Assembly (NCBI GenBank): GCA_043815885.1
Contig: JBDRIL010000020.1
Coordinates: forward strand, 1-27,040
Length of the DNA: 27,040 bases
Origin: an archaeon
Lineage (GTDB): Archaea > Iainarchaeota > Iainarchaeia > Iainarchaeales > 1-14-0-10-31-34
Direction: 5' to 3'
Position 1 is the first letter of the stretch. Every line of letters starts with the position of its first letter. Below, in pieces: positions 428 to 20,782 of this stretch. A program made the position numbers and the translations under genes. The notes beneath the pieces were generated by a model. It did not search any database, was not told the origin of the DNA, and saw only the letters and a program-made list of their open reading frames with translations.

Positions 428-433
428 GGAGGT
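428..433 (+). promoter_or_regulatory. Shine-Dalgarno sequence for ATG 443
   Basis: GGAGGT ends 9 nt before ATG 443. Confidence 0.7.
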
Positions 434-442
434 TGATAAAAA

Positions 443-487
443 ATGAAAAACAAAAAAACAAATAGAAGGGATTTACTTTGGCAGTAA
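443..487 (+). CDS. 14-aa leader [17 protein letters not shown] upstream of and overlapping the trpB2 frame
   Basis: SD-led ATG 443, single Trp codon at 479-481, TAA at 485-487. The trpB2 frame is +1 relative to this ORF. Confidence 0.55.
467..482 (+). promoter_or_regulatory. Candidate prfB-like +1 ribosomal frameshift site AGG GAT TTA CTT TGG C
   Basis: Same codon register as E. coli prfB AGG GGG TAT CTT TGA C. A CTT-to-TTT slip enters the trpB2 frame at GGC 480. Confidence 0.45.
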
Positions 488-515
488 ACAAAAAATAATT
501 CTTCCAGAAGAAGAA

Positions 516-1754
516 TTGCCTAAATATTACTATAATATTTTGCCTGACCTGCCAAAAGAACTCCCTAAACCGGAAGGAAATCTGGAAGTACTTCCAAAAA
601 TCTTTGCAAAGAGTTTGCTGGAACAGGAATTCTCTCCTGAAAGAAGGGTTAGAATTCCGGAGGAAGTAAGGGAACTCTACTTCAAGTGCGGAAGGCCTTC
701 TCCAATTTACAGGGCAAAGAAATTAGAAGAATTTCTTAAGACCCCTGCAAGGATTTTCTTCAAGAGAGAAGACCTTTCTCCGACAGGATCACATAAACTC
801 AATACAGCTTTAGCCCAAGCATACTATATTGCAAAAGACGGTTTGGAGGAGGTGACAACAGAAACAGGGGCAGGCCAGTGGGGTTCGGCTCTGAGCTTAG
901 CTGCTTACTTTTTTGGATTGAAATGCAGGGTATTCATGGTTAAAGTAAGCTATCAGCAAAAACCCTACAGGAAGTATGTAATGAATTTCTTTAATGCAGA
1001 AGTTATTCCTTCTCCCTCCAGTGAAACCAGTGCAGGAAAAAAAGCCTTAAAAGAAAATCCAAATCATTTGGGTTCTCTTGGGCTAGCTATTTCAGAAGCA
1101 ATAGATTTCGCCTTGCAGAGTGACTCCAGAGCCTATTCTCTTGGTTCAGTGTTAAACCATGTTTTATTGCATCAGACAGTTATTGGAGAAGAAGCACTAA
1201 AGCAAATGCAATCCATTGAATTAATGCCTGACTATGTGATTGGATGCGTTGGAGGAGGAAGCAATTTTTCAGGTTTGGCCTATCCTTTCATTCGCCAGAG
1301 ACTGAAAAAGAAAGAGGAAATTAACTTCATTGCAGTTGAACCAAAGGAAGTCCCTTCTCTAACCAGAGCTCCATACATATTTGATTACGGAGACGAAGCA
1401 GAGCTAACACCAAAACTTAAAATGCATTCTTTGGGGCATAAATTTGCTTCTCCCCCAATCTATGCCGGAGGCTTGCGCTATCATGGATGCGCTCCAACAC
1501 TCTCCTTACTCAAAGAAGAAGGCATAGTGAGAGGAAAAGCCTATCCTCAGAAGGAGTGCTTTGATGCAGCAAAATTATTCGCAGAAAACGAAGGAATAAT
1601 TGTGGCTCCAGAAACATCCCATGCAGTAAAGGCAGTAATAGAAAAGGCACTGGAATGCAAGAGAAAGGAGGAAGAGAAAACAATTCTCTTTAATCTTTCA
1701 GGGCATGGATTACTGGACTTACAGGGGTATGCAGATATACTGAAATTCAAGTGA
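516..1754 (+). CDS. trpB2: TrpB2, stand-alone tryptophan synthase beta-like PLP enzyme. The frame is open from 447 and the conserved N-terminus begins upstream of TTG 516.
   Basis: GSHKLNTA (PLP lysine), [47 protein letters not shown] motifs. No trpA adjacent. Confidence 0.95.
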
Positions 1755-1761
1755 TGCAAAA

Positions 1762-2166
1762 ATGAGAAAACCATTCACCCTAACACTGGACTTCATTGAA
1801 GCAAGCAAACTAAGAAGCCATGAAAAAACCTCAGAGAAAAGAATGAACAGGATTGCAGAAGAAATCAACCAGGATAACTCTATTGTTCCAATCCTGGTTG
1901 ATTCCTCCTTTCTTGTTGTATTGGACGGGCACCACAGACTAAATTACTTGAAGAAATTGGGTTTCAAGAAGATTCCAGTACTGCTTACAGACTACTTCTC
2001 TGATAAATTAACTCTTTTCCCGAGAAGAAAAAAAATAAAATTAAATAAAAGGAAAGTAATCGAAAACGCTTTCTCTAATAGATTATTTCAATTCAAAACC
2101 ACAAGGCATTCAATTAAGGGAAATTATTTAATCAAGGTTCCACTGAATTTCATCAAAAGAAATTAA
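1762..2166 (+). CDS. ParB/sulfiredoxin-fold protein, compact SerK/SbnI-like free serine kinase candidate
   Basis: SHE, PILVD..VLDGHHR, DYF and C-terminal KTTRH motifs in the order recalled for Thermococcus SerK. Starts 7 nt after the trpB2 stop. Confidence 0.7.
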   Translation: MRKPFTLTLDFIEASKLRSHEKTSEKRMNRIAEEINQDNSIVPILVDSSFLVVLDGHHRLNYLKKLGFKKIPVLLTDYFSDKLTLFPRRKKIKLNKRKVIENAFSNRLFQFKTTRHSIKGNYLIKVPLNFIKRN

Positions 2167-4372: not shown

Positions 4373-7300
4373 ATGAATTTAAGGATTCCATGGGAATTAT
4401 TCATTCTTGCTTCAATCCTTTTATTCATTACAATCTTTTTTGTTCCGGTTCCTTTCAGCCCAGTAGGAAAAGCAATCTATTTTGATGCCCCAATAGCAAT
4501 GTATCATTTTGATGAGGGAAGCGGAACAGTAGTATATGATTCAAGTGACTATGGAAACAATGGAACTGTTCATGGAGCGGGATGGGTTGCAGGCTATGAC
4601 GGGACTGGTTATGCACTAAGCTTTGATGGAATTAATGATTATGTTAGTGTTTATGGTTCAACTGGCTTGAACCTGCTTCAAGGGGAGGGAACAATTTCGG
4701 CTTGGGTTTATACATTGGATTCAACTACTGCTTATGATCAAAGATTTGTAACAATGGGAGAAAATGATTTCTGGATTGGGACTTCAGCTGAAGGACCTAA
4801 TAGTAGGATCATGCTTAGGGGTTGGAATAGTGTTGAAGGTAATGTAGATGTTTTCTCAAATAAAACACTAAGTCTGTATGTGGGGGCTTGGCATCATGTT
4901 GCAGGCGTAGCTGATGGAAGTAATCTAAAACTGTATATTGATGGAGTTCTACAGAGTTCTGCTCGATTTAATGGTGTTGAAGTATTAGATAATTCGGTTT
5001 GGATAGGTAGTTGGTATTCTCCTGGAAATGGTTTTTTTCATGGAATGATTGACGAAGTAGTTATTTATGATTACGCTAAAACAAGTTTTGATATTTCTAT
5101 TCCTCCTACAGCCGAAGCAGGAGGACCTTACAATGGAGTAGTGAACCTAGCTTTTAGTATAACTGGAACAGGGCATGATGGAGATGGGGTAATTAGCAGC
5201 ATTCAATTTGGGTGCAGTAGCGGGGATGCTTCATGTAATTCCTATTGTATTTTGGAACCAGACCTGTTTCCAAACTGCCTTGTTACTGGCACTGGAACTC
5301 CAGACGCCAGTAGTCAATGTGGTATTTTATGTTCTAGAGCGGGAACATACACTTTTACTTTGACTGCAACAGATGATGACGGAGCAACAGCAACAGACAA
5401 TGCTACTGCAACTATTGTTGCAAATAATCCTCCGACTGCAAACGCAAACGAACCGTCAGGAGGCTATAAAGGAAAAGTTAATTCAAATATAACATTGCAT
5501 GGAACAGGAACTGATTCAGACGGAACAGTCAGTGAAATTTATTGGCATTTAGGTTCTGGAGGTGGAATCTGCAATCTTTCAAATGGAACCCCAACAGGGA
5601 TTGGAACAAAAACTGCAAATATTTATTCAACTCTCAATTGCTCTGCTGAAATAACATTTCAGGCAATATTGACTGTCAATGACAATTATTATGCAAGGGA
5701 CACAAAAACCGTAAATGTAGTTGTTTCAGTAAATGTTCCTCCAACAGCTGATGCAGATGGTTTTGTTGAGGGAGACCATTATGTTGGGCAAGTTAATTCA
5801 AATATTCAATTGAATGGTTCTGGTTCTGATTCTGATGGAACAATAAAGTCAATTAAATGGCAGACTACTGCTGCAGGTTGTACTATTACCCAGCACCAAG
5901 TCGGCCTTAACACCAACCATGCAACAAATGATGGAACAATCAGATGCAATTCCACTGGAAGAAAAGACATTGACTTGAATGTAACGGACAATTATGATGA
6001 TTCAACTATTGTTTCAACTTATGCTGGAGTCACTCCTGCAACTCCAACCGGACTGCAGGCAACAGGAGAAAATGCCAGGGTTGTTATTGCATGGTATGCG
6101 TCCACTGGAGCCATTTATTACAAGCTTGCCTGGAGAAAAGAAGGAATGTCAACTCCAGTAGTAATTCAAGTTAATTCCACTTCTTACACTCACACTGGAT
6201 TGACTAATGAAGTTCAGTACTGTTATTCTGTTGCTGCATGCAATTCTTTTGGCTGCAGTGGTTTTTCTTCCGAGGCCTGCGCTACTCCAAGCGCTCCATC
6301 AAATCCCGGCACTCCCCCAACGATTACTTCCTTTAATGCCATTGGAGGGAATGCTCAAGTCAGTTTGAGCTGGAGTGCTTCAGGTTCAACGCCAATAAAA
6401 TTTAACTTGGAGAGAAAATTGGGTTCAACAGGAACTTACGCTGTAATTTTATCCAATTCCACTTTGTATTCATTTCTTGATTCAGGGCTGGAGAACGAGA
6501 AAACTTATTATTACAGATTGACTGCATTCAATGATTATCCGCCTGACGCAACCAGAGAAACTTATGCGCAAACCCATTTGACTGGAACCAGCCCAAACAT
6601 CACCTTGTTTATTGTAATTGAAGGAGACCAAAAAGTTGAATTGAGCTGGACTGCAACAGGCACTTCTCCAATAAAATACACTTTGAGCAGAAAGATCGAA
6701 TCAACCGGAACATATTCAGCAATTCTCACAGATTATAATGGAAATTCCTTCACTGACTCAAATTTAACAAACAACAAAACTTACTACTACAAACTAAATG
6801 CAGTTAATCTCTTTGGTTCAGCCGAAAAAACCCTTACAGCTACCCCTCATATTGGAGAATGCGGGAATGAAAAACTTGAATCTGGAGAAGCCTGTGAGGT
6901 TGCAGAGGATTGTGATGACCCAAGAACTCAATGCGATTTAGTGAATAAAAGGTTTGGAGAGACAACAATTTCCTGTACCAAGTGTGAATGCATTGCCGGA
7001 AGCTGGAGCTGGAGCTACAGTAATTCAATTGGTTCTGATTACTGCATTAACTGCCAGTATTGCGGTGACGGGGAATGTAATTGCGGAGAAACAACTGACA
7101 CCTGTTCAGGAGATTGTGGAACGGGAGAGGATTTAACTCCTCCTTATGCTCCAAGAAACCCGAAGGCAACTCCAGGAGACGGAAAGATATTGCTTGAATG
7201 GACTGAAAACACTGAAATTGATTTAGATAAATATATAGTGTATTATGGTGCTACAAGTAAAGCGTATGACTTCAATGAAACTACCACTCATAATTATCTT

Positions 7301-7945
7301 GAAATCCATGGATTGATTAATGGATTAAAGTATTATTTTGCAGTAAAGGCAGTTGATTTCAGCGGCAATGCAAGTGATTTCTCCAGAGAGGTTTCTGCAA
7401 CTCCAGAAGAGGAGGAAGTACTCCCCCCAACCGATTTAGAGGTTTCAATTTCTGCAAAAAAGGTAAAGCTTTCATGGAAGCATGCTTCCCCCAGGCCCAA
7501 ACATTACGATATCTATAGAGATGGAGAATTTTTGGATTCCACTTCAGGCAGTTATTATTACGATGAAAGTGCTGAAGCCGGAGAAACCTATTCTTATTAC
7601 CTTTTAAGTGTTTCAGAGGAGGGAAAGGAAAGCAATAAATCAATGACTGTTGAGTTTGAGGTTCCAGGGAGTGATGCATGCAAGAAGGACGGTAAATGCA
7701 ATAAAGAAGAATGTGAAAGAACTGGCGATCCAGACTGTATTTGTAATTATGATGGAATCTGTGAAGAGGGAATAGAGAATGAATTCAATTGTCCTGATGA
7801 CTGTGAAGAAGTAGGAATTGATTGGGTTACTGGAGCCACAATTGGTTTAATCATTCTTGCGATCTCTGCTGCAGCAGCAGTATTTGTTTATAAGAAGAAG
7901 AAAGAGGAAGAAGGCTCAGAAGAACAAAACTTTTTCAAGTTCTGA
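4373..7945 (+). CDS. Membrane-anchored surface protein: LamG-like, PKD/Ig-like repeats, FN3 repeats, Cys-rich modules, C-terminal TM
   Basis: N-terminal hydrophobic helix; YHFDEGSG..DSS, WHHVAGV, LYIDG, GMIDEV (LamG); PPTAEAGGPY and D.DG.I repeats (PKD-like); L.W...YYY.L.A.N (FN3); CGN..LE.GE.CE; C-terminal TM followed by KKKK. Confidence 0.88.
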   Translation: MNLRIPWELFILASILLFITIFFVPVPFSPVGKAIYFDAPIAMYHFDEGSGTVVYDSSDYGNNGTVHGAGWVAGYDGTGYALSFDGINDYVSVYGSTGLNLLQGEGTISAWVYTLDSTTAYDQRFVTMGENDFWIGTSAEGPNSRIMLRGWNSVEGNVDVFSNKTLSLYVGAWHHVAGVADGSNLKLYIDGVLQSSARFNGVEVLDNSVWIGSWYSPGNGFFHGMIDEVVIYDYAKTSFDISIPPTAEAGGPYNGVVNLAFSITGTGHDGDGVISSIQFGCSSGDASCNSYCILEPDLFPNCLVTGTGTPDASSQCGILCSRAGTYTFTLTATDDDGATATDNATATIVANNPPTANANEPSGGYKGKVNSNITLHGTGTDSDGTVSEIYWHLGSGGGICNLSNGTPTGIGTKTANIYSTLNCSAEITFQAILTVNDNYYARDTKTVNVVVSVNVPPTADADGFVEGDHYVGQVNSNIQLNGSGSDSDGTIKSIKWQTTAAGCTITQHQVGLNTNHATNDGTIRCNSTGRKDIDLNVTDNYDDSTIVSTYAGVTPATPTGLQATGENARVVIAWYASTGAIYYKLAWRKEGMSTPVVIQVNSTSYTHTGLTNEVQYCYSVAACNSFGCSGFSSEACATPSAPSNPGTPPTITSFNAIGGNAQVSLSWSASGSTPIKFNLERKLGSTGTYAVILSNSTLYSFLDSGLENEKTYYYRLTAFNDYPPDATRETYAQTHLTGTSPNITLFIVIEGDQKVELSWTATGTSPIKYTLSRKIESTGTYSAILTDYNGNSFTDSNLTNNKTYYYKLNAVNLFGSAEKTLTATPHIGECGNEKLESGEACEVAEDCDDPRTQCDLVNKRFGETTISCTKCECIAGSWSWSYSNSIGSDYCINCQYCGDGECNCGETTDTCSGDCGTGEDLTPPYAPRNPKATPGDGKILLEWTENTEIDLDKYIVYYGATSKAYDFNETTTHNYLEIHGLINGLKYYFAVKAVDFSGNASDFSREVSATPEEEEVLPPTDLEVSISAKKVKLSWKHASPRPKHYDIYRDGEFLDSTSGSYYYDESAEAGETYSYYLLSVSEEGKESNKSMTVEFEVPGSDACKKDGKCNKEECERTGDPDCICNYDGICEEGIENEFNCPDDCEEVGIDWVTGATIGLIILAISAAAAVFVYKKKKEEEGSEEQNFFKF

Positions 7946-7997: not shown

Positions 7998-10900
7998 ATG
8001 AATGAATCACTTCCTGTAAAGTTGCTTTTAATATCTTTTGTGTTAATCGTAGTTATTTCTATTGCAGTTTATTTTTCTTTTTCGGGCTTATCAACTCCTG
8101 CAGGAAAAGCAATCTATTTTGATGCCCCAATAGCAGTTTATAATTTTGATAATGATACTGCACAGGATTCAAGCGGTAATGGATTGCATGGAGTAATTGA
8201 AGGGAATCCTGTTTTTGTTGGCACAATTCACGGGAAAGGATTGAGTTTTGATGGAACCGGGGATGATGATTATGTTGGGGTTCCTGACAATTCCTTGTTT
8301 GATGTCCAGAATTTCACTATTGAGGCTTTCATTAAGCCTGCTTCAGATCCCAATGGCTGGGGGGGATATCATACAATTGTTTCAAAGCAAAGCCAATTCA
8401 TTTTTAGATTTGGGGGTTCAGGGCTTTACGGAATTACTAACTGCGGTTTCGCGAGCTTGCTTGGAAATGACTTTGATTGGATTGCAGGAAGATGGTATCA
8501 TTTGGCCTTTACTTATGATGGAAGCTTTTTGAGGCTTTACGTTGATGGAACAGAAAAAGCTTCCACTCCTTGCAGCACTCCGCCAGGCCATTCAGACCAC
8601 ACTTTGTTGATAGGCAATCATTTTGGCAGCTTAAACAATGAATTTGATGGAGTAATAGATGAAGTGGTTATTTCTAATTACGCCAAGACTTCATTCATTA
8701 TCCCAAACACCCCCCCAGAAGTTAATGCCGACGGCCCTTATTCTGGGGAAGTGAATTCAAATATTCAATTGAATGGTTCTGCAACAGATGATGAAAGCAT
8801 TGCTTCAATTGTTTGGTCCACAAGCGCTTCTGACTGCACCATAAATCAAAACCCGATTATTATTGATTACACTGCAACCAACAATGGAACAATTAATTGC
8901 TCTACTGTTGGCGCAAAAAACCTCACTTTAACTGCAACAGACAACACTGGATTAACTTCAACTGCCAATTCAACAGTGAATGTAACAGAACAGCAGAAAA
9001 CAATTGCATTATATCACTTAAATGAAGGAAACGGCACAATAATAAATGATTCAAGCGGAAACAATTTGAATGGAAACATTGTTGGTTCCCCAACTTTTGT
9101 TGGCACTCCCTGGGTTGCAGGATTAAATTTTAATAGAAGCGGAGGAAATTACGCTGAAGTTCCGGATGATGATTTGTTTGATATAAACAGTTTTACTATT
9201 GAGGCTTGGATTAAGCCTGCAACAAACACTTCTTCTTGGAGCTACTACCACACAATTGTTTCAAAAGATGCCCAATATATTTTGGGATTCCGTGACAATC
9301 TCATTCAAGGAATTGTTAATCCATATGCAATTGAAGCCCCCTTTAATGGAACCGCCGGAAATTGGTATCACATAGCGTTTACTTATGACAGTATTACCAA
9401 AAGAATGAAATTATATGTTGGAAATACTGAAGTGGCTGCTTCAAATCCTTTATCGCATGGCCCTATTCCATCGAGTGGTTCTCTGAGAATTGGAAATCAC
9501 TCTGTTGCAGACAACCATAATGAATTTGATGGAGTAATTGATGAAGTGATTATTTCCAATTACGCCAAAACATCTTTTGATGTCTCAATTCCTTCTGATT
9601 CAATTCCTCCAGCAAAAATCACAGATTTAGGCATGAATTGTTCCTGGGCTCCAGTAGCAATGTCATGCATTCTTAATTGGACTGCTCCAGGAGATGACGG
9701 CAGTTCAGGCTTGGCTTCATCTTATGATATAAGGTTTTCCAGTAGCAATTTTCCTCCAACTACATGGGATGGGGCCCTGAAAGTAAACCATGAACCCCTT
9801 CCAGTTCCAGCAGGAACCCCACAGTCAATGACTGTAGATGGATTAGTTCCCCGCGATGCTTATTATTTTGTGATGAAAACAGGGGATGAAGTACCTAATT
9901 GGTCAGAAATGTCAAATGTAGCTGTCTGGACCAGAACTTCTTCCGACACAATCCCTCCATCTGCAATTACCAATCTTTCAGTTCCCTCATGCAGCAATAA
10001 TTCCTGTTCTTTGAGTTGGACTGCTCCTGGTGATGACGGAAGTTCAGGCACTGCTTCTCAGTATGATTTAAGGTATTCTATTTCAAATATCACTGAGTCT
10101 AATTGGAATTCAGCAACCCAAGCTACTGGTGAGCCTTCACCGCAGATTGCAGGTACAACTCAGTCAATGAGTGTAACTGGATTGAGTCCTTCAACTACTT
10201 ATTATTTTGCGATTAAAACTGCGGATGAAGTGCCTAACTGGTCAGCTATTTCCAATGTTCCAAGCAGAGCTACTGGTTCAACTTCTGATTCAACCCCTCC
10301 AACTGTTTCAATCACTTCTCCTTTGAATGGTGCAACTGTTTCTGGGGTTGTTTCTGTTTCAGCTACTGCTTCAGATAATGTTGGTGTAACTAAAGTGGAA
10401 TTTCATGTTTCAAACAGTTTAAAGTCAACTGATAATTCTTCTCCTTATTCTTTTGACTGGAATACCTTGCAGTATGCCAATGGAAATTATTCTTTGAAAG
10501 CAGTTGCTTTTGATGCAGCGGACAATAATGCTTCTAGTTCAATTAATGTTGATGTGAATAATAGTTCTTCTTCTGTTGTTTTTTGCGGTAATGGAGTTTT
10601 AGAACTAGGAGAAGCCTGTGAGAATGATTCTCATTGCAGTCCTGAAACACAGTGTGATTCAGCGAATAAGAGGTATGGAGAAAGAACTGCAAGTTGTAGT
10701 GCATGTGAATGTGATTATGGAAGCTGGAGCTGGAGCTCTACCTCTTACTGCAGTAATTGTAATTCTTGTGGGGATGATTCCTGTAATTGCGGGGAAACCT
10801 CTACGACTTGTTCTGGAGACTGTGGAGGGGGGGATGATACAATTCCTCCTTCTAGGCCTATTGGATTGACTGCCACAAGTGGAGAGCAAAAAGTTGATTT

Positions 10901-11606
10901 GGACTGGAATGATAATTCTGAAGCAGATCTTTCCCACTACATTGTATTTTATGGTTTGTCTTCTGGTTCCTATGACTGGAATGTAATGGTAACGAGTTCA
11001 AGTGCAACAATTCTGGATTTAGGGGAAGAAGTAAGATATTATTTTGCTGTAAAGGCAGTTGATTACACTGGAAATAAAAGCACTTTCTCTGACGAGGTTT
11101 CTGCTGTAACTTCAGCAGTTTCACTCAAGCCTCCAAAAAACATTAATATCTCTCTTACAGATGAAAAAATCAGGGTTAATTGGTCTTTTGCTGTTCCTGA
11201 ACCAGACCATTACGATGTATACAAGAATGGAAAGTTTGTTACTGCTACAACAGAAAATTATTACCTTGATTCCAAATACGAGAAAGGAGAAACTTATTCA
11301 TACTATGTAAAGAGTATTGCAATAGACGGTTCTGAGAGCGATAAATCAAAAACAGTGAGTATTTCAATTCCAGGGGAAGATCCATGCAGAAAGAACGGAG
11401 AATGTAATGAAGATTGCAATAGAACTGAAGACCCTGACTGCTTATGCATTGAAAACGGAATATGTGAAACTGAATTCGAGAACACAGAAAACTGTCCAGC
11501 TGACTGTGAAGAAATGCCAATAGATTATTACACTAATTTAAGTATTGGATTAGGGTTAGTGATTGTTTCAGCAGTAATCGCAGTAATCTTCTTCAAGAAA
11601 GCCTGA
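7998..11606 (+). CDS. Paralogous membrane-anchored surface protein: two LamG-like, PKD-like, FN3, bacterial Ig-like and Cys-rich modules, C-terminal TM
   Basis: Two WYH.AFTYD/FDGVIDEV units; two WTAPGDDG FN3-like units; PPTVSITSP..ATASDNVGVTKVEF Ig-like unit; C-terminal ~330 aa collinear with the preceding gene. Confidence 0.88.
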   Translation: MNESLPVKLLLISFVLIVVISIAVYFSFSGLSTPAGKAIYFDAPIAVYNFDNDTAQDSSGNGLHGVIEGNPVFVGTIHGKGLSFDGTGDDDYVGVPDNSLFDVQNFTIEAFIKPASDPNGWGGYHTIVSKQSQFIFRFGGSGLYGITNCGFASLLGNDFDWIAGRWYHLAFTYDGSFLRLYVDGTEKASTPCSTPPGHSDHTLLIGNHFGSLNNEFDGVIDEVVISNYAKTSFIIPNTPPEVNADGPYSGEVNSNIQLNGSATDDESIASIVWSTSASDCTINQNPIIIDYTATNNGTINCSTVGAKNLTLTATDNTGLTSTANSTVNVTEQQKTIALYHLNEGNGTIINDSSGNNLNGNIVGSPTFVGTPWVAGLNFNRSGGNYAEVPDDDLFDINSFTIEAWIKPATNTSSWSYYHTIVSKDAQYILGFRDNLIQGIVNPYAIEAPFNGTAGNWYHIAFTYDSITKRMKLYVGNTEVAASNPLSHGPIPSSGSLRIGNHSVADNHNEFDGVIDEVIISNYAKTSFDVSIPSDSIPPAKITDLGMNCSWAPVAMSCILNWTAPGDDGSSGLASSYDIRFSSSNFPPTTWDGALKVNHEPLPVPAGTPQSMTVDGLVPRDAYYFVMKTGDEVPNWSEMSNVAVWTRTSSDTIPPSAITNLSVPSCSNNSCSLSWTAPGDDGSSGTASQYDLRYSISNITESNWNSATQATGEPSPQIAGTTQSMSVTGLSPSTTYYFAIKTADEVPNWSAISNVPSRATGSTSDSTPPTVSITSPLNGATVSGVVSVSATASDNVGVTKVEFHVSNSLKSTDNSSPYSFDWNTLQYANGNYSLKAVAFDAADNNASSSINVDVNNSSSSVVFCGNGVLELGEACENDSHCSPETQCDSANKRYGERTASCSACECDYGSWSWSSTSYCSNCNSCGDDSCNCGETSTTCSGDCGGGDDTIPPSRPIGLTATSGEQKVDLDWNDNSEADLSHYIVFYGLSSGSYDWNVMVTSSSATILDLGEEVRYYFAVKAVDYTGNKSTFSDEVSAVTSAVSLKPPKNINISLTDEKIRVNWSFAVPEPDHYDVYKNGKFVTATTENYYLDSKYEKGETYSYYVKSIAIDGSESDKSKTVSISIPGEDPCRKNGECNEDCNRTEDPDCLCIENGICETEFENTENCPADCEEMPIDYYTNLSIGLGLVIVSAVIAVIFFKKA

Positions 11607-20182: not shown

Positions 20183-20782
20183 ATGGCTAAAACAAAAAAG
20201 GTTCTCAGCACCGGAAGATTCGGAGTAAGGTATGGGGTAGGAATAAGAAAGAGACTGCTGAAGATAGAACTAAAGCAGAGAAAAAAGCATGTCTGTTCTA
20301 TTTGTGGTTTTGGAAAGCTAAGGAGAACCAGTACAGGAATTTATTACTGTAAGAAATGCGACAAAGACTTTTCAGGAGGAGCCTATCTCCCTGAAACAAT
20401 GACTGGGAGAATAATCAAGAAAATGGTCATCCAAAAAAAGTTTTTACCACAGTTAGGGGAATTGATTGAGGCAAGAGAAAAACCGTTTGAAGCAGAAAAA
20501 GTAGTGGAAAAGAAAGAAGAGAAAAAGGAAGACACCGCTTTTTGGAAAAGCAGTGGCGCAAAAGCTGAAGCTTTTTGGAAAAGCAGTGGCGCAAAAGAAG
20601 AAAAGAAAGAAATTGAATCCAAAAAAGACAAGGAAAAGAAGAGAAAGGACTTAAGGGAAACGCAAAAGAAGAGGAGAGAAAAGAAGAAATCAGAGAAAGA
20701 AAAGAAGAAAGACAAAGGAATATTTAAGAGTGTTATCTCTAAATTAAAGAAGGATGAGAAAAAAGGAGTGAAGGCAAAATGA
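20183..20782 (+). CDS. rpl37ae: 50S ribosomal protein L37ae with a long Lys/Glu-rich C-terminal extension
   Basis: GRFGVRYG..IRK, CxxC..TGIY.CxxC..FSGGAY.P within the first ~72 aa. Confidence 0.93.
   Translation: MAKTKKVLSTGRFGVRYGVGIRKRLLKIELKQRKKHVCSICGFGKLRRTSTGIYYCKKCDKDFSGGAYLPETMTGRIIKKMVIQKKFLPQLGELIEAREKPFEAEKVVEKKEEKKEDTAFWKSSGAKAEAFWKSSGAKEEKKEIESKKDKEKKRKDLRETQKKRREKKKSEKEKKKDKGIFKSVISKLKKDEKKGVKAK
20533..20597 (+). repeat. In-frame palindromic repeat family C (33-bp-period dimer), copy 2
   Basis: caccgctttt-tgg-aaaagcagtg hairpin plus gcgcaaaag, partly duplicated; encodes TAFWKSSGAKAEAFWKSSGAK. Confidence 0.9.

Follow-up and report, generated by a model that had tools for sequence, protein, structure and literature searches.

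A predicted +1 frameshift at a tryptophan codon as a candidate tryptophan sensor in the trpB2 gene of small-genome archaea

The window, as we call the whole stretch of 27,040 nucleotides of archaeal DNA that was analysed, contains a trpB2 gene whose leading translation start lies in another reading frame, which raises the question of how the full-length TrpB2 protein could be made. Direct reading of the sequence bears out the layout that the preliminary description had given, with a Shine-Dalgarno (SD) site at 428-433, a 14-codon leader beginning with ATG 443, and trpB2 in the +1 frame relative to the leader, open from 447 and without an ATG, GTG or TTG before 516.

428..433, + strand: Shine-Dalgarno site GGAGGT, 9 nt 5′ of ATG 443, read from the sequence
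443..487, + strand: zero-frame leader ORF, 14 codons plus stop, with ATG at 443-445
480..1754, + strand: trpB2 CDS in the +1 frame, 424 codons plus TGA 1752-1754

The leader codons are ATG AAA AAC AAA AAA ACA AAT AGA AGG GAT TTA CTT(476-478) TGG(479-481) CAG TAA(485-487). The trpB2 frame is shut by TGA 444-446, and the earliest canonical start codon that it offers is TTG 516. The duplex predicted between GGAGGT and the anti-SD amounts to -12.8 kcal/mol, the 3′ end of the host genome's own 16S rRNA being ..GGAUCACCUCCU.

The downstream gene is clearly a trpB2. The model NF009057 scores its ORF at 646.6 bits (cut-off 366), which assigns it to TrpB2, and TIGR01415 at 626.8 (cut-off 518.85), whereas the TrpB1 model TIGR00263 gives the same ORF only 171 (cut-off 392). 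The solved TrpB2 chains 6hul, 4qys and 6hte align end to end, with E values against the PDB down to 5e-147, and the motif of the PLP-binding lysine (S91-H92-K93), TETGAGQW and CVGGGSNF show little or no variation across a 20-sequence alignment (A1). TrpB2 itself has a single Trp codon. The resemblance to a TrpB2 N-terminus that had been claimed for the segment upstream of 516 holds as well, with the solved chains aligning from residues 16-20 of the 447-frame translation. As an outgroup, a profile scan of genome contigs gave 80 distant TrpB2 loci among the matches listed, 57 of them with a motif anchor. All 57 anchored loci among those matches have an in-frame canonical start 11-20 codons 5′ of the P..WYN motif, and an in-frame ATG of their own is present in all seven loci inspected by eye out of the 23 non-anchored ones among the matches listed. 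Two Thorarchaeota trpB2 loci that were inspected (L048 and L086) also start with an in-frame ATG. The sole in-frame canonical start of the window is located at -1 codon relative to the P..WYN motif.

The explanation that we prefer, with a probability of about 0.62, is that full-length TrpB2 is produced by a programmed +1 frameshift at a 'hungry' UGG codon, predicted from the sequence and presumably raised when charged tRNA-Trp is low. Two further elements are needed to describe it.

476..482, + strand: proposed +1 shift site CTT_TGG_C, placed by the conserved heptamer form and the stop-codon limits
467..471, + strand: internal SD-like element AGGGA, weak, 4 nt 5′ of the slip codon

Ribosomes would initiate at the SD-led ATG 443 and read 12 leader codons, the last of which, CUU (476-478), would then occupy the P site while UGG enters the A site. 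Prompt delivery of Trp-tRNA(Trp) would let Trp, Gln and the stop codon be read, with release of a 14-residue peptide. If charged tRNA(Trp) is scarce, the A site would stay empty and the peptidyl-tRNA(Leu) could slip from CUU to UUU, after which Gly-tRNA would read GGC and translation would continue into a 436-residue TrpB2 with the predicted junction DLLGSK. The first 12 codons of the leader are accordingly proposed to encode the TrpB2 N-terminus, and the size of 436 aa that had been predicted for the product is correct, at 12 + 424 aa. Such a shift would constitute end-product feedback via charged tRNA(Trp).

The arrangement recurs in relatives whose TrpB2 proteins are ~56-69% identical to that of the window. 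An SD and ATG leader with trpB2 in the +1 frame is found at 14 of the 20 loci of the order having a 5′ end (13 of 19 genomes), and at three of seven metagenome loci, which represent two distinct sequences; the 16 out-of-frame loci discussed below are those 14, the window included, and the two distinct metagenome loci. Since the layout is found again in 15 other distinct loci, it is far beyond chance. Class- and phylum-level searches (215 genomes, the same 21 matches) yielded no TrpB2 genomes beyond the order. An SD is present at all 16 leader ATGs, with duplexes of -8.1 to -12.8 kcal/mol, and each leader, 11-36 codons long in the 15 other loci, contains exactly one Trp codon (16/16 with the window). 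The number of leader codons preceding the slip codon takes nine different values between 8 and 18, and in every locus TGG stays in the frame of the SD-led ATG. Related archaea therefore do possess the out-of-frame leader ending in CUU-UGG that the preliminary description had envisaged, ten loci having CTT at the P-site position and the others GCC (4) or CCC (2). Plain in-frame trpB2 genes are found at six of the 20 loci of the order and in one metagenome relative.

Relatives with in-frame starts lacking CUU-UGG had been considered as possible counter-evidence; the in-frame relatives that were found encode the predicted trans-frame fusion itself, carrying RRDL-x-GSK in one uninterrupted ORF. 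The +1 product of the window aligns from Met1 with the continuous ORF of the locus L118 (MENK---RRDLTGSK) at 58% identity over 113 columns (E 4e-42), and in the in-frame homologues the N-terminal extension runs colinear with the leader-frame peptide. Substitutions among relatives at codon positions 1/2/3 number 68/67/96 in the leader frame upstream of the site and 138/78/249 in the trpB2 frame from the GGN codon on, and the stretch from the junction to any downstream start evolves as trpB2-frame coding sequence, with indels in multiples of three. Comparison of the loci shows the two-frame layout to be conserved, together with the position of the predicted shift and its fusion product, and from these alignments a +1 frameshift, as a predicted event, is strongly supported.

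The site is kept as (CTT, GCC or CCC)_TGG_(C or A) in all 16 out-of-frame loci. While the P-site codon varies, UGG and the Gly codon of the +1 frame are fixed; the A-site codon is UGG and never a stop, the zero-frame stop follows 1-21 codons later, and the T of TGG never changes, although in the trpB2 frame it occupies a third codon position that is free to vary. In the out-of-frame loci, the stop codons of the two frames restrict the shift to the four codons -1 to +2 around the site, and in three loci a TAG lies directly 5′ of the +1-frame entry. In the window, CTT_T at 476-479 places a P-site CUU before a U and allows re-pairing on UUU, as in ten of the 16 loci, the others having CCC_T (2) and GCC_T (4). 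We infer slippage as the mechanism, together with its dependence on Trp-tRNA and its efficiency; GCC re-pairs poorly on CCU, and the four GCC loci would therefore need a shift without slippage, or would shift poorly. Avoidance of the heptamer in ordinary genes was not seen among the long ORFs of the host genome, where CTT-TGG is mildly depleted (30 seen, 46.5 expected) and CCC-TGG (20 versus 8.6) and GCC-TGG (22 versus 14.6) are enriched, so the heptamer alone cannot be strongly shift-prone. The usage of UGG in the host genome is ordinary, at 8.5 per 1000 codons.

The internal SD-like element had been described as weaker than that of prfB, and indeed AGGGA pairs with the anti-SD at -5.8 kcal/mol, a value matched or beaten by 23% of control positions in the same gene. 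Much stronger forms occur in relatives as GGGAGG, GAGGTGA and GGGGTGA. The pairing falls within the top 3-4% of controls in six of the 16 loci and at 6-8% in three, and is no better than background in the remaining seven (23% in the window, 13-41% in the six others). A candidate 3′ element was also considered.

496..518, + strand: 9-bp hairpin, 14 nt 3′ of the A-site codon, specific to the window

The region 483-560 folds with z = -2.9 relative to shuffled sequences; the hairpin has no counterpart in L006 or L030, the two relatives that were also folded, and was not counted in the mechanism as a stimulatory structure.

The alternative that survives best, though we consider it unlikely, is a real but constitutive +1 shift, which would either provide a fixed low yield of TrpB2 or represent an old frameshift mutation rescued by leaky slippage, with UGG as a convenient slow codon and without a useful response to Trp. 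The comparative evidence for a shift fits this explanation equally well, and six in-frame relatives live without the device. However, all 16 loci retain UGG, whereas three different codons occur in the P site, and variation would be expected if any slow codon sufficed. Next, tryptophan is the product of this gene, and the layout occurs only where trpA is lacking: trpA scores above cut-off in none of the 13 genomes with the layout, and the only trpB2 of known 5′ end to neighbour trpA is an in-frame gene. Finally, a shift at UGG with an empty A site would on kinetic grounds have to depend on the supply of Trp-tRNA. In the host genome, a 62-contig draft of 92% completeness, trpA, IGPS, a chorismate-binding enzyme and trpB1 were not found, and TrpRS is present; with the rest of the trp pathway missing from this genome, TrpB2 would therefore be an indole-salvage enzyme. 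A tRNA-Trp gene located 25-131 nt upstream on the same strand in six of the 16 loci may be co-transcribed with trpB2, and no tRNA-Trp gene was found by ARAGORN in the 92%-complete host genome. That the site is a natural amino-acid sensor, in which the level of charged tRNA(Trp) would set the +1 slip fraction at (CUU, CCC or GCC)_UGG across an order of small-genome archaea, appears somewhat favoured.

It is improbable that frameshifting is not involved at all and that the leader is an independent uORF, possibly a Trp-sensing peptide, with TrpB2 starting at its own downstream or non-canonical codon, such as TTG 516 in the window, a GTG, TTG or ATG upstream of the junction in some relatives, or an internal ATG in the GCC group, where it is conserved at a distance of 7 codons 5′ of the P..YYN motif. 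Control of trp genes by leader peptides that contain Trp codons is known, and nine of the 16 out-of-frame loci have a canonical trpB2-frame start upstream of the junction, two of which (L030 and L115) share the SD of the leader and could bypass the shift. In the other seven, however, this start has no SD, and a further seven loci, including the window, have no such start. Initiation at TTG 516 would cost the protein a stretch matching N-terminal residues that are ordered in solved TrpB2 structures, and its position of -1 codon contrasts with -11 to -20 in 57 of 57 distant homologues among the matches listed. The trpB2-frame coding signal past the junction, with its indels in threes, and the union of the leader-frame peptide with the post-junction stretch in one ORF of the in-frame homologues likewise argue against separate initiation, as does the lack of a terminator, antiterminator or Rfam family in the searches made of the region.

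Three more specific candidates were rejected. The non-canonical ATA 462-464 is not retained as a start in the strain variant from sequencing run X2, which alters the ATA and puts a TAA in that frame. The third-frame TTG 478, 6 nt after AGGGA, opens a frame of only 2-7 codons in relatives, with no conserved slippery run seen. Transcription attenuation of the trpL type is contradicted by the one Trp codon per leader, the lack of a terminator-like site on the + strand within 100-600, the lack of an Rfam match within 100-700 at E up to 1, and the fold of the leader region, which is no better than that of shuffles (z -0.01).

The leader is rich in A, which forms runs of 5-7, and comes from a draft genome, but a homopolymer error in sequencing or assembly, a pseudogene, or transcriptional slippage on A runs that restores the frame is scarcely credible, since contigs from other sequencing runs match across 384-635 or differ by an in-frame insertion, the same layout occurs in 15 other distinct loci, the trpB2 ORF is unbroken across all 424 codons, and trpB2-frame stops lie between the A runs and the junction in L022, L026, L027, L028 and the X2 strain. 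The Logan contigs of run X1, which may be the source sample, show one substitution and no gaps over 401-635, and those of run X3 two substitutions and no gaps over 384-534, whereas the X2 variant has a 9-nt in-frame insertion in the leader, which also places a TAA in the trpB2 frame two codons 5′ of GAA GGG, and is identical from 464 to 606; contig depths are low (2.2-2.7). No A-run indel is present in the contigs of the three runs and the A6 run at 490-495 is reproduced, which speaks against two caveats raised at the outset, namely that the frame could be restored by an extra A in the runs at 446-458, or by a missing A at 490-495 combined with a start at TTG 478. Transcriptional slippage on the A runs is excluded for the loci with trpB2-frame stops after the runs, because it could not give TrpB2 there. 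The metatranscriptome X5 contributes just two 31-nt contigs, both on the A-rich 436-465.

The proposed tryptophan-responsive shift shares features with several known systems. In bacterial prfB, encoding release factor 2, an autoregulatory +1 frameshift takes place at CUU_UGA_C with the aid of an internal SD. As in prfB, a short zero-frame ORF opens the gene with the main body in +1, a P-site CUU would slip to UUU, the slow A-site codon would be decoded by means of the gene's own end product in a negative-feedback logic, and an SD-like element precedes the site in many trpB2 loci. The differences from prfB are the sense codon UGG instead of a stop in the A site, charged tRNA-Trp instead of a release factor as the presumed sensor, an archaeal host, an internal SD that seven of the 16 loci, the window among them, have weakly or not at all, and the additional use of GCC and CCC in the P site. 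Bacteria sense Trp through translation or tRNA by trpL attenuation, by a Trp T-box before a lone trpB2 and by TnaC. In these systems, as would be the case here, the occupancy of UGG by ribosome or tRNA reports the tryptophan supply to a trp gene, whereas the trpB2 leader has one Trp codon and gave no terminator, antiterminator, T-box or Rfam match in the region searched, and its output would be a change of reading frame inside the gene itself.

Ty3 performs a +1 shift at GCG_AGU_U without P-site slippage, and the sites of ABP140 and EST3 resemble that of yeast Ty1. The GCC_UGG_C variant of the four loci may be of the Ty3 type, its Ala P-site codon being likewise unable to re-pair in +1, with a different A-site codon and host. 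At CUU_AGG_C of Ty1, the +1 shift occurs at a 'hungry' sense codon for which the decoding tRNA is in short supply, as described in the part of a recoding review that deals with it (PMC5009743). The trpB2 site has the same heptamer form of CUU, a slow sense codon and C, and a single slow aminoacyl-tRNA would drive the shift, with no need for a 3′ structure. In Ty1 it is gene dosage that makes the tRNA scarce, and no role of the shift as a metabolite sensor is known; at trpB2, the level of the scarce tRNA would follow the supply of tryptophan and be restored by the gene product. Given that the internal SD is weak in the window and strong in only six of the 16 loci, the trpB2 site appears closer to the Ty1 type of hungry-sense-codon shifting than to prfB. 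The antizyme +1 frameshift serves in polyamine sensing, according to the relevant part of the same review (PMC5009743). It is similar to the proposed one in being a sensor within a feedback loop on a small-molecule pathway; however, antizyme shifts at a stop codon and is stimulated by high product, while trpB2 would respond to low product via tRNA charging.

Release factor 2 and antizyme are known cases of regulation by +1 frameshifting, and starvation-induced shifting at 'hungry' codons has been seen for decades in laboratory constructs. With regard to the use of hungry-codon shifting for starvation-specific trans-frame proteins, the corresponding passage of the 2016 review states that 'no examples are known' (PMC5009743). 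The literature searched yielded no account of a frameshift in trpB2, and in the available portion of a preprint (10.64898/2026.05.13.725050) programmed frameshifts are mentioned only generically. The trpB2 locus would fill this gap with a natural example, in which an enzyme is controlled through the codon for the very amino acid that it produces and that is in short supply. Should this be so, the locus would have no known precedent among programmed frameshifts in linking the supply of an amino acid to its own synthesis, and would be a rare case of chromosomal +1 recoding in Archaea. Together with the bacterial T-box control of lone trpB2, it would suggest that stand-alone TrpB2 is placed under control by Trp-tRNA status in several different ways. 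Gene callers will truncate the start or flag such a trpB2 as broken, and tryptophan salvage would be missed in these archaea. The cassette of ~60 nt is also a candidate portable sensor of Trp-tRNA.

Directly downstream, trpB2 is adjoined by a small gene.

1762..2166, + strand: gene for a 134-aa ParB-fold protein like free serine kinase (SerK), adjoining trpB2

The 134-aa protein matches the PDB entry 5x0b 'Free serine kinase' with an E value of 2.4e-9 and the SerK model NF053625 with an E value of 5e-15, at a score far under the cut-off of the model. A SerK-like gene adjoins trpB2 in five of 22 other loci, all of which belong to the family of the window, and may be an operon partner of trpB2.

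The left-end gene of the window encodes TrpB2, a tryptophan synthase beta chain of the stand-alone type, with a profile score of 646.6 bits (NF009057, cut-off 366) and with Sulfolobus-type TrpB2 chains as the top PDB matches (E-values down to 5e-147). It belongs to a 1.16-Mb archaeal draft genome (62 contigs, 92% complete), and the remaining genes of the window form the usual archaeal housekeeping set (L15e, RNase P subunits, proteasome alpha, SBDS, exosome Rrp4/41/42). The following features surround trpB2, those of the leader being read directly from the sequence.

428-433, + strand: Shine-Dalgarno (SD) sequence GGAGGT
443-487, + strand: leader ORF of 14 codons, from ATG 443 to TAA 485-487, ending AGG GAT TTA CTT TGG CAG TAA
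496-518, + strand: 9-bp hairpin (AAUUCUUC..GAAGAAUU), 14 nt past the A-site codon of the proposed shift; z -2.9 for 483-560
1762-2166, + strand: ParB-fold, SerK-like ORF of 134 aa, starting 8 nt past trpB2

The SD, the leader ATG, the leader end, the +1 relation and the lack of a start before 516 had all been reported in the preliminary description, and direct reading reproduces them exactly. The trpB2 frame is +1 to the leader and open from 447, its first ATG, GTG or TTG is the TTG at 516, and the alignment of solved TrpB2 chains starts at residues 16-20 of the translation from 447. The comparison set of distant TrpB2 genes comprised 80 loci among the matches listed, with the P..WYN anchor located by script in 57 and not located in 23; in all 57, from Bacteria and Archaea, a canonical start lies in frame 11-20 codons before the anchor, and the seven viewed by eye of the other 23 each have an ATG of their own. 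The sole canonical trpB2-frame start of the window lies at -1 codon from the anchor, against -11 to -20 in these homologues, and the normal start is thus missing.

The out-of-frame layout is not an artefact. The caveat raised earlier, that a miscounted A-run could restore the frame, was checked against Logan contigs of two sequencing runs, both of low depth, which reproduce the region with no indel: 401-635 with one substitution in run X1, possibly the source sample, and 384-534 with two substitutions in run X3. A strain variant in a third run, spanning 348-606, carries a 9-nt insertion directly past the ATG and three substitutions, at 451, 459 and 463; from 464 to 606 it matches the window fully. 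The insertion preserves the leader frame and creates a TrpB2-frame TAA located two codons ahead of GAA GGG, so that in this strain the ATA at 462-464 cannot act as a hidden start.

The layout is conserved across the order. Among 196 species genomes, TrpB2 (E <= 1e-100) was found in 21, at 22 places, 20 of which include the 5′ end; an SD-led ATG with a short frame and trpB2 in +1 is present at 14 of these 20 loci, in 13 genomes of three families, and trpB2 is in frame at the other six. A metagenome scan yielded seven loci, three of which have the out-of-frame design and represent two distinct sequences (protein 66-69% identical to that of the window); the remaining four comprise one in-frame gene and three distant, in-frame genes. 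Class-level and phylum-level searches found nothing further. Both trpB2 copies of one genome, G007 (L003 and L018, on different contigs), have a frameshift leader; its contamination is 3%, and the pair may be a strain mixture. Two distant TrpB2 genes from long-read MAGs, L040 and L046, change frame about 20-35 codons into trpB2 without the conserved leader design, and these changes look like assembly errors.

Across the 16 distinct loci with leader and trpB2 out of frame, the window included, the slip codon is preceded by 8 to 18 leader codons, with nine different counts represented, while every leader ATG shares its frame with a TGG, which is the only Trp codon of the leader. An out-of-frame leader ending in CUU-UGG, suggested earlier as the feature to seek in related archaea, is indeed present there: TGG is preceded by CTT in ten loci, GCC in four and CCC in two, and followed by C or A, giving GGC or GGA in the +1 frame. 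With the stops of both frames intersected over the 16 loci, the shift has room only in the four codons at -1 to +2 relative to CTT/GCC/CCC, and in three loci the last base of a TrpB2-frame TAG is the first base of the P-site codon. In the TrpB2 frame the T of TGG falls at a third codon position (of TTT or CCT), where it could vary freely, yet it is invariant; the constraint thus comes from the leader-frame UGG.

The 16S rRNA 3′ end of the genome reads ..GGAUCACCUCCU, and an SD precedes the leader ATG in all 16 loci (predicted duplex -8.1 to -12.8 kcal/mol). A canonical TrpB2-frame start upstream of the junction is absent in seven loci, the window included, and seven others have one without an SD (duplex no better than -1.7). 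In L030 and L115 a TrpB2-frame ATG lies 7 nt past the leader ATG and has the SD in common with it, which could allow the shift to be bypassed in these two loci.

The N-terminal extension of in-frame relatives is colinear with the leader-frame peptide followed by the TrpB2-frame peptide, most clearly so in the metagenome locus L118, which groups with the frameshifted L021 as its sister in the TrpB2 tree and has an uninterrupted ORF that begins MENKRRDLTGSK. The window product obtained by a single +1 step at CTT_T can be aligned with L118 over 110 residues, starting at Met1 (58% identity, E 4e-42). Substitution patterns among close relatives, as pairwise and non-independent counts, agree with such a fusion: TrpB2-frame positions 1/2/3 have 138/78/249 from the GGN codon on, and leader-frame positions have 68/67/96 upstream of the junction, the latter giving modest support. 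From the junction to the conserved core, indel lengths are divisible by three. A quick maximum-likelihood tree (30 rows: 23 order and metagenome loci and seven outgroups from the 80 distant loci; without L119, a duplicate of L115, L116/L117 and the 5′-truncated L020/L033; SH-aLRT support only) has frameshifted genes in each of the two major TrpB2 clades of the order, and in-frame genes branch among these at four points. Parsimony on this tree is neutral between gains and losses; the cassette sequence common across clades, for instance AGAAGGGATTTA in L001, L021, L022 and L027, would favour a single origin with repeated loss.

Taken from these sequence comparisons, a programmed +1 frameshift at trpB2 is very probable, and a response to tryptophan supply is the best-supported inference, since the UGG is invariant and the gene function and kinetic reasoning point the same way. 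While CUU occupies the P site and UGG the A site, late Trp-tRNA would give peptidyl-tRNA(Leu) time to re-pair on UUU, after which GGC would be decoded and the ribosome would run on into TrpB2; with ample Trp-tRNA, Trp, Gln and the stop would be decoded. To the full statement, a programmed +1 frameshift at a hungry UGG that raises TrpB2 when charged tRNA-Trp is low, we assign a probability of roughly 0.6; the several relatives without the device are a point against it.

Re-pairing would be equally good at the CCC_U sites. At GCC_U good re-pairing would not be possible and a shift without slippage would be needed, as in Ty3, where +1 shifting proceeds without slippage. An SD-like purine tract before the site is strong in six loci (GGGAGG, GAGGTGA, GGGGTGA, AGGCGGT; top 3-4% of same-gene control positions), moderate in three and at background level in seven, the window included, where the AGGGA tract, already regarded as weak in the preliminary description, is equalled or beaten by 23% of control positions. 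No counterpart of the 496-518 hairpin was seen in two relatives folded. ARAGORN predicts tRNA-Leu(GAG) and tRNA-Leu(CAG) in the genome and found no tRNA-Trp in its incomplete set of 28 tRNA genes, many with predicted introns. Avoidance of the heptamer was not found in the other genes of the genome: the 672 ORFs with 200 or more codons contain 30 CTT-TGG pairs where 46.5 would be expected, and CCC-TGG and GCC-TGG are enriched, so context must matter or efficiency must be low.

Folding, Rfam and terminator checks found neither a trpL-type attenuator nor a T-box at the trpB2 leader. The device resembles prfB in its working, but the A-site stop that defines prfB is absent, its place being taken by a sense codon. 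In this respect Ty1 CUU_AGG_C is the closer match; there, according to a 2016 review, the A-site codon is 'hungry' because its tRNA is scarce (PMC5009743). Of hungry-codon frameshifting for starvation-specific trans-frame proteins the same review states that 'no examples are known', and the archaeal cases it names are few, namely viral tail genes, magnesium chelatase and a possible Sulfolobus case (PMC5009743). A full-text literature search found no report of frameshifting in trpB2; the device would be a form of regulatory +1 recoding, which is known as a kind.

In the source genome (92% complete) TrpRS is present, and no trpA, indole-glycerol-phosphate synthase, chorismate-binding enzyme or TrpB1 was found; with the rest of the pathway missing, TrpB2 is a salvage enzyme for indole. 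Throughout the order its N-terminal motif (window 519-540) reads P..YYN or P..FYN, against P..WYN in other lineages, which leaves a single Trp codon in the whole enzyme (1 in 435 in the window). Above the cut-off, trpA occurs in 54 of the 196 genomes and in none of the 13 with the frameshift layout, which are few and related; the sole trpB2 with known 5′ end that adjoins trpA (genome G144) is in frame.

A same-strand tRNA-Trp(CCA) lies directly upstream of trpB2 in L021, L024, L026, L030, L031, L032, L115 and L118, that is, in six of the 16 frameshift loci and two in-frame loci, and the 25-131 nt from tRNA end to leader ATG in the six frameshift loci measured suggest a tRNA-Trp-trpB2 transcription unit. 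Upstream of the window trpB2 there is an LSM gene and no tRNA-Trp. At the usual tRNA-Trp place in L022, L027 and L028, all GCC-type, ARAGORN finds a tRNA whose anticodon is UUU (Lys) or whose anticodon loop is odd.

The 134-aa ORF past trpB2 resembles the free serine kinase SerK (PDB 5x0b, E 2.4e-9; NF053625, E 5e-15, far under the cut-off), has about half the archaeal SerK length and keeps the DGHHR and KTTRH motifs. A SerK-like gene adjoins trpB2 in 5 of 22 other loci, all of the window's family, and is upstream there. Some TrpB2 enzymes use O-phosphoserine, and the SerK-like protein may be its source. Elsewhere in the window, two adjacent proteins of about 1200 aa (4373-7945 and 7998-11606, + strand) with LamG, fn3, PKD and Big_7 domains are probably surface proteins, and a 199-aa ORF (20183-20782, + strand) with a ribosomal L37ae domain in residues 3-83 only may be a fusion or the second frame problem mentioned in the preliminary description.
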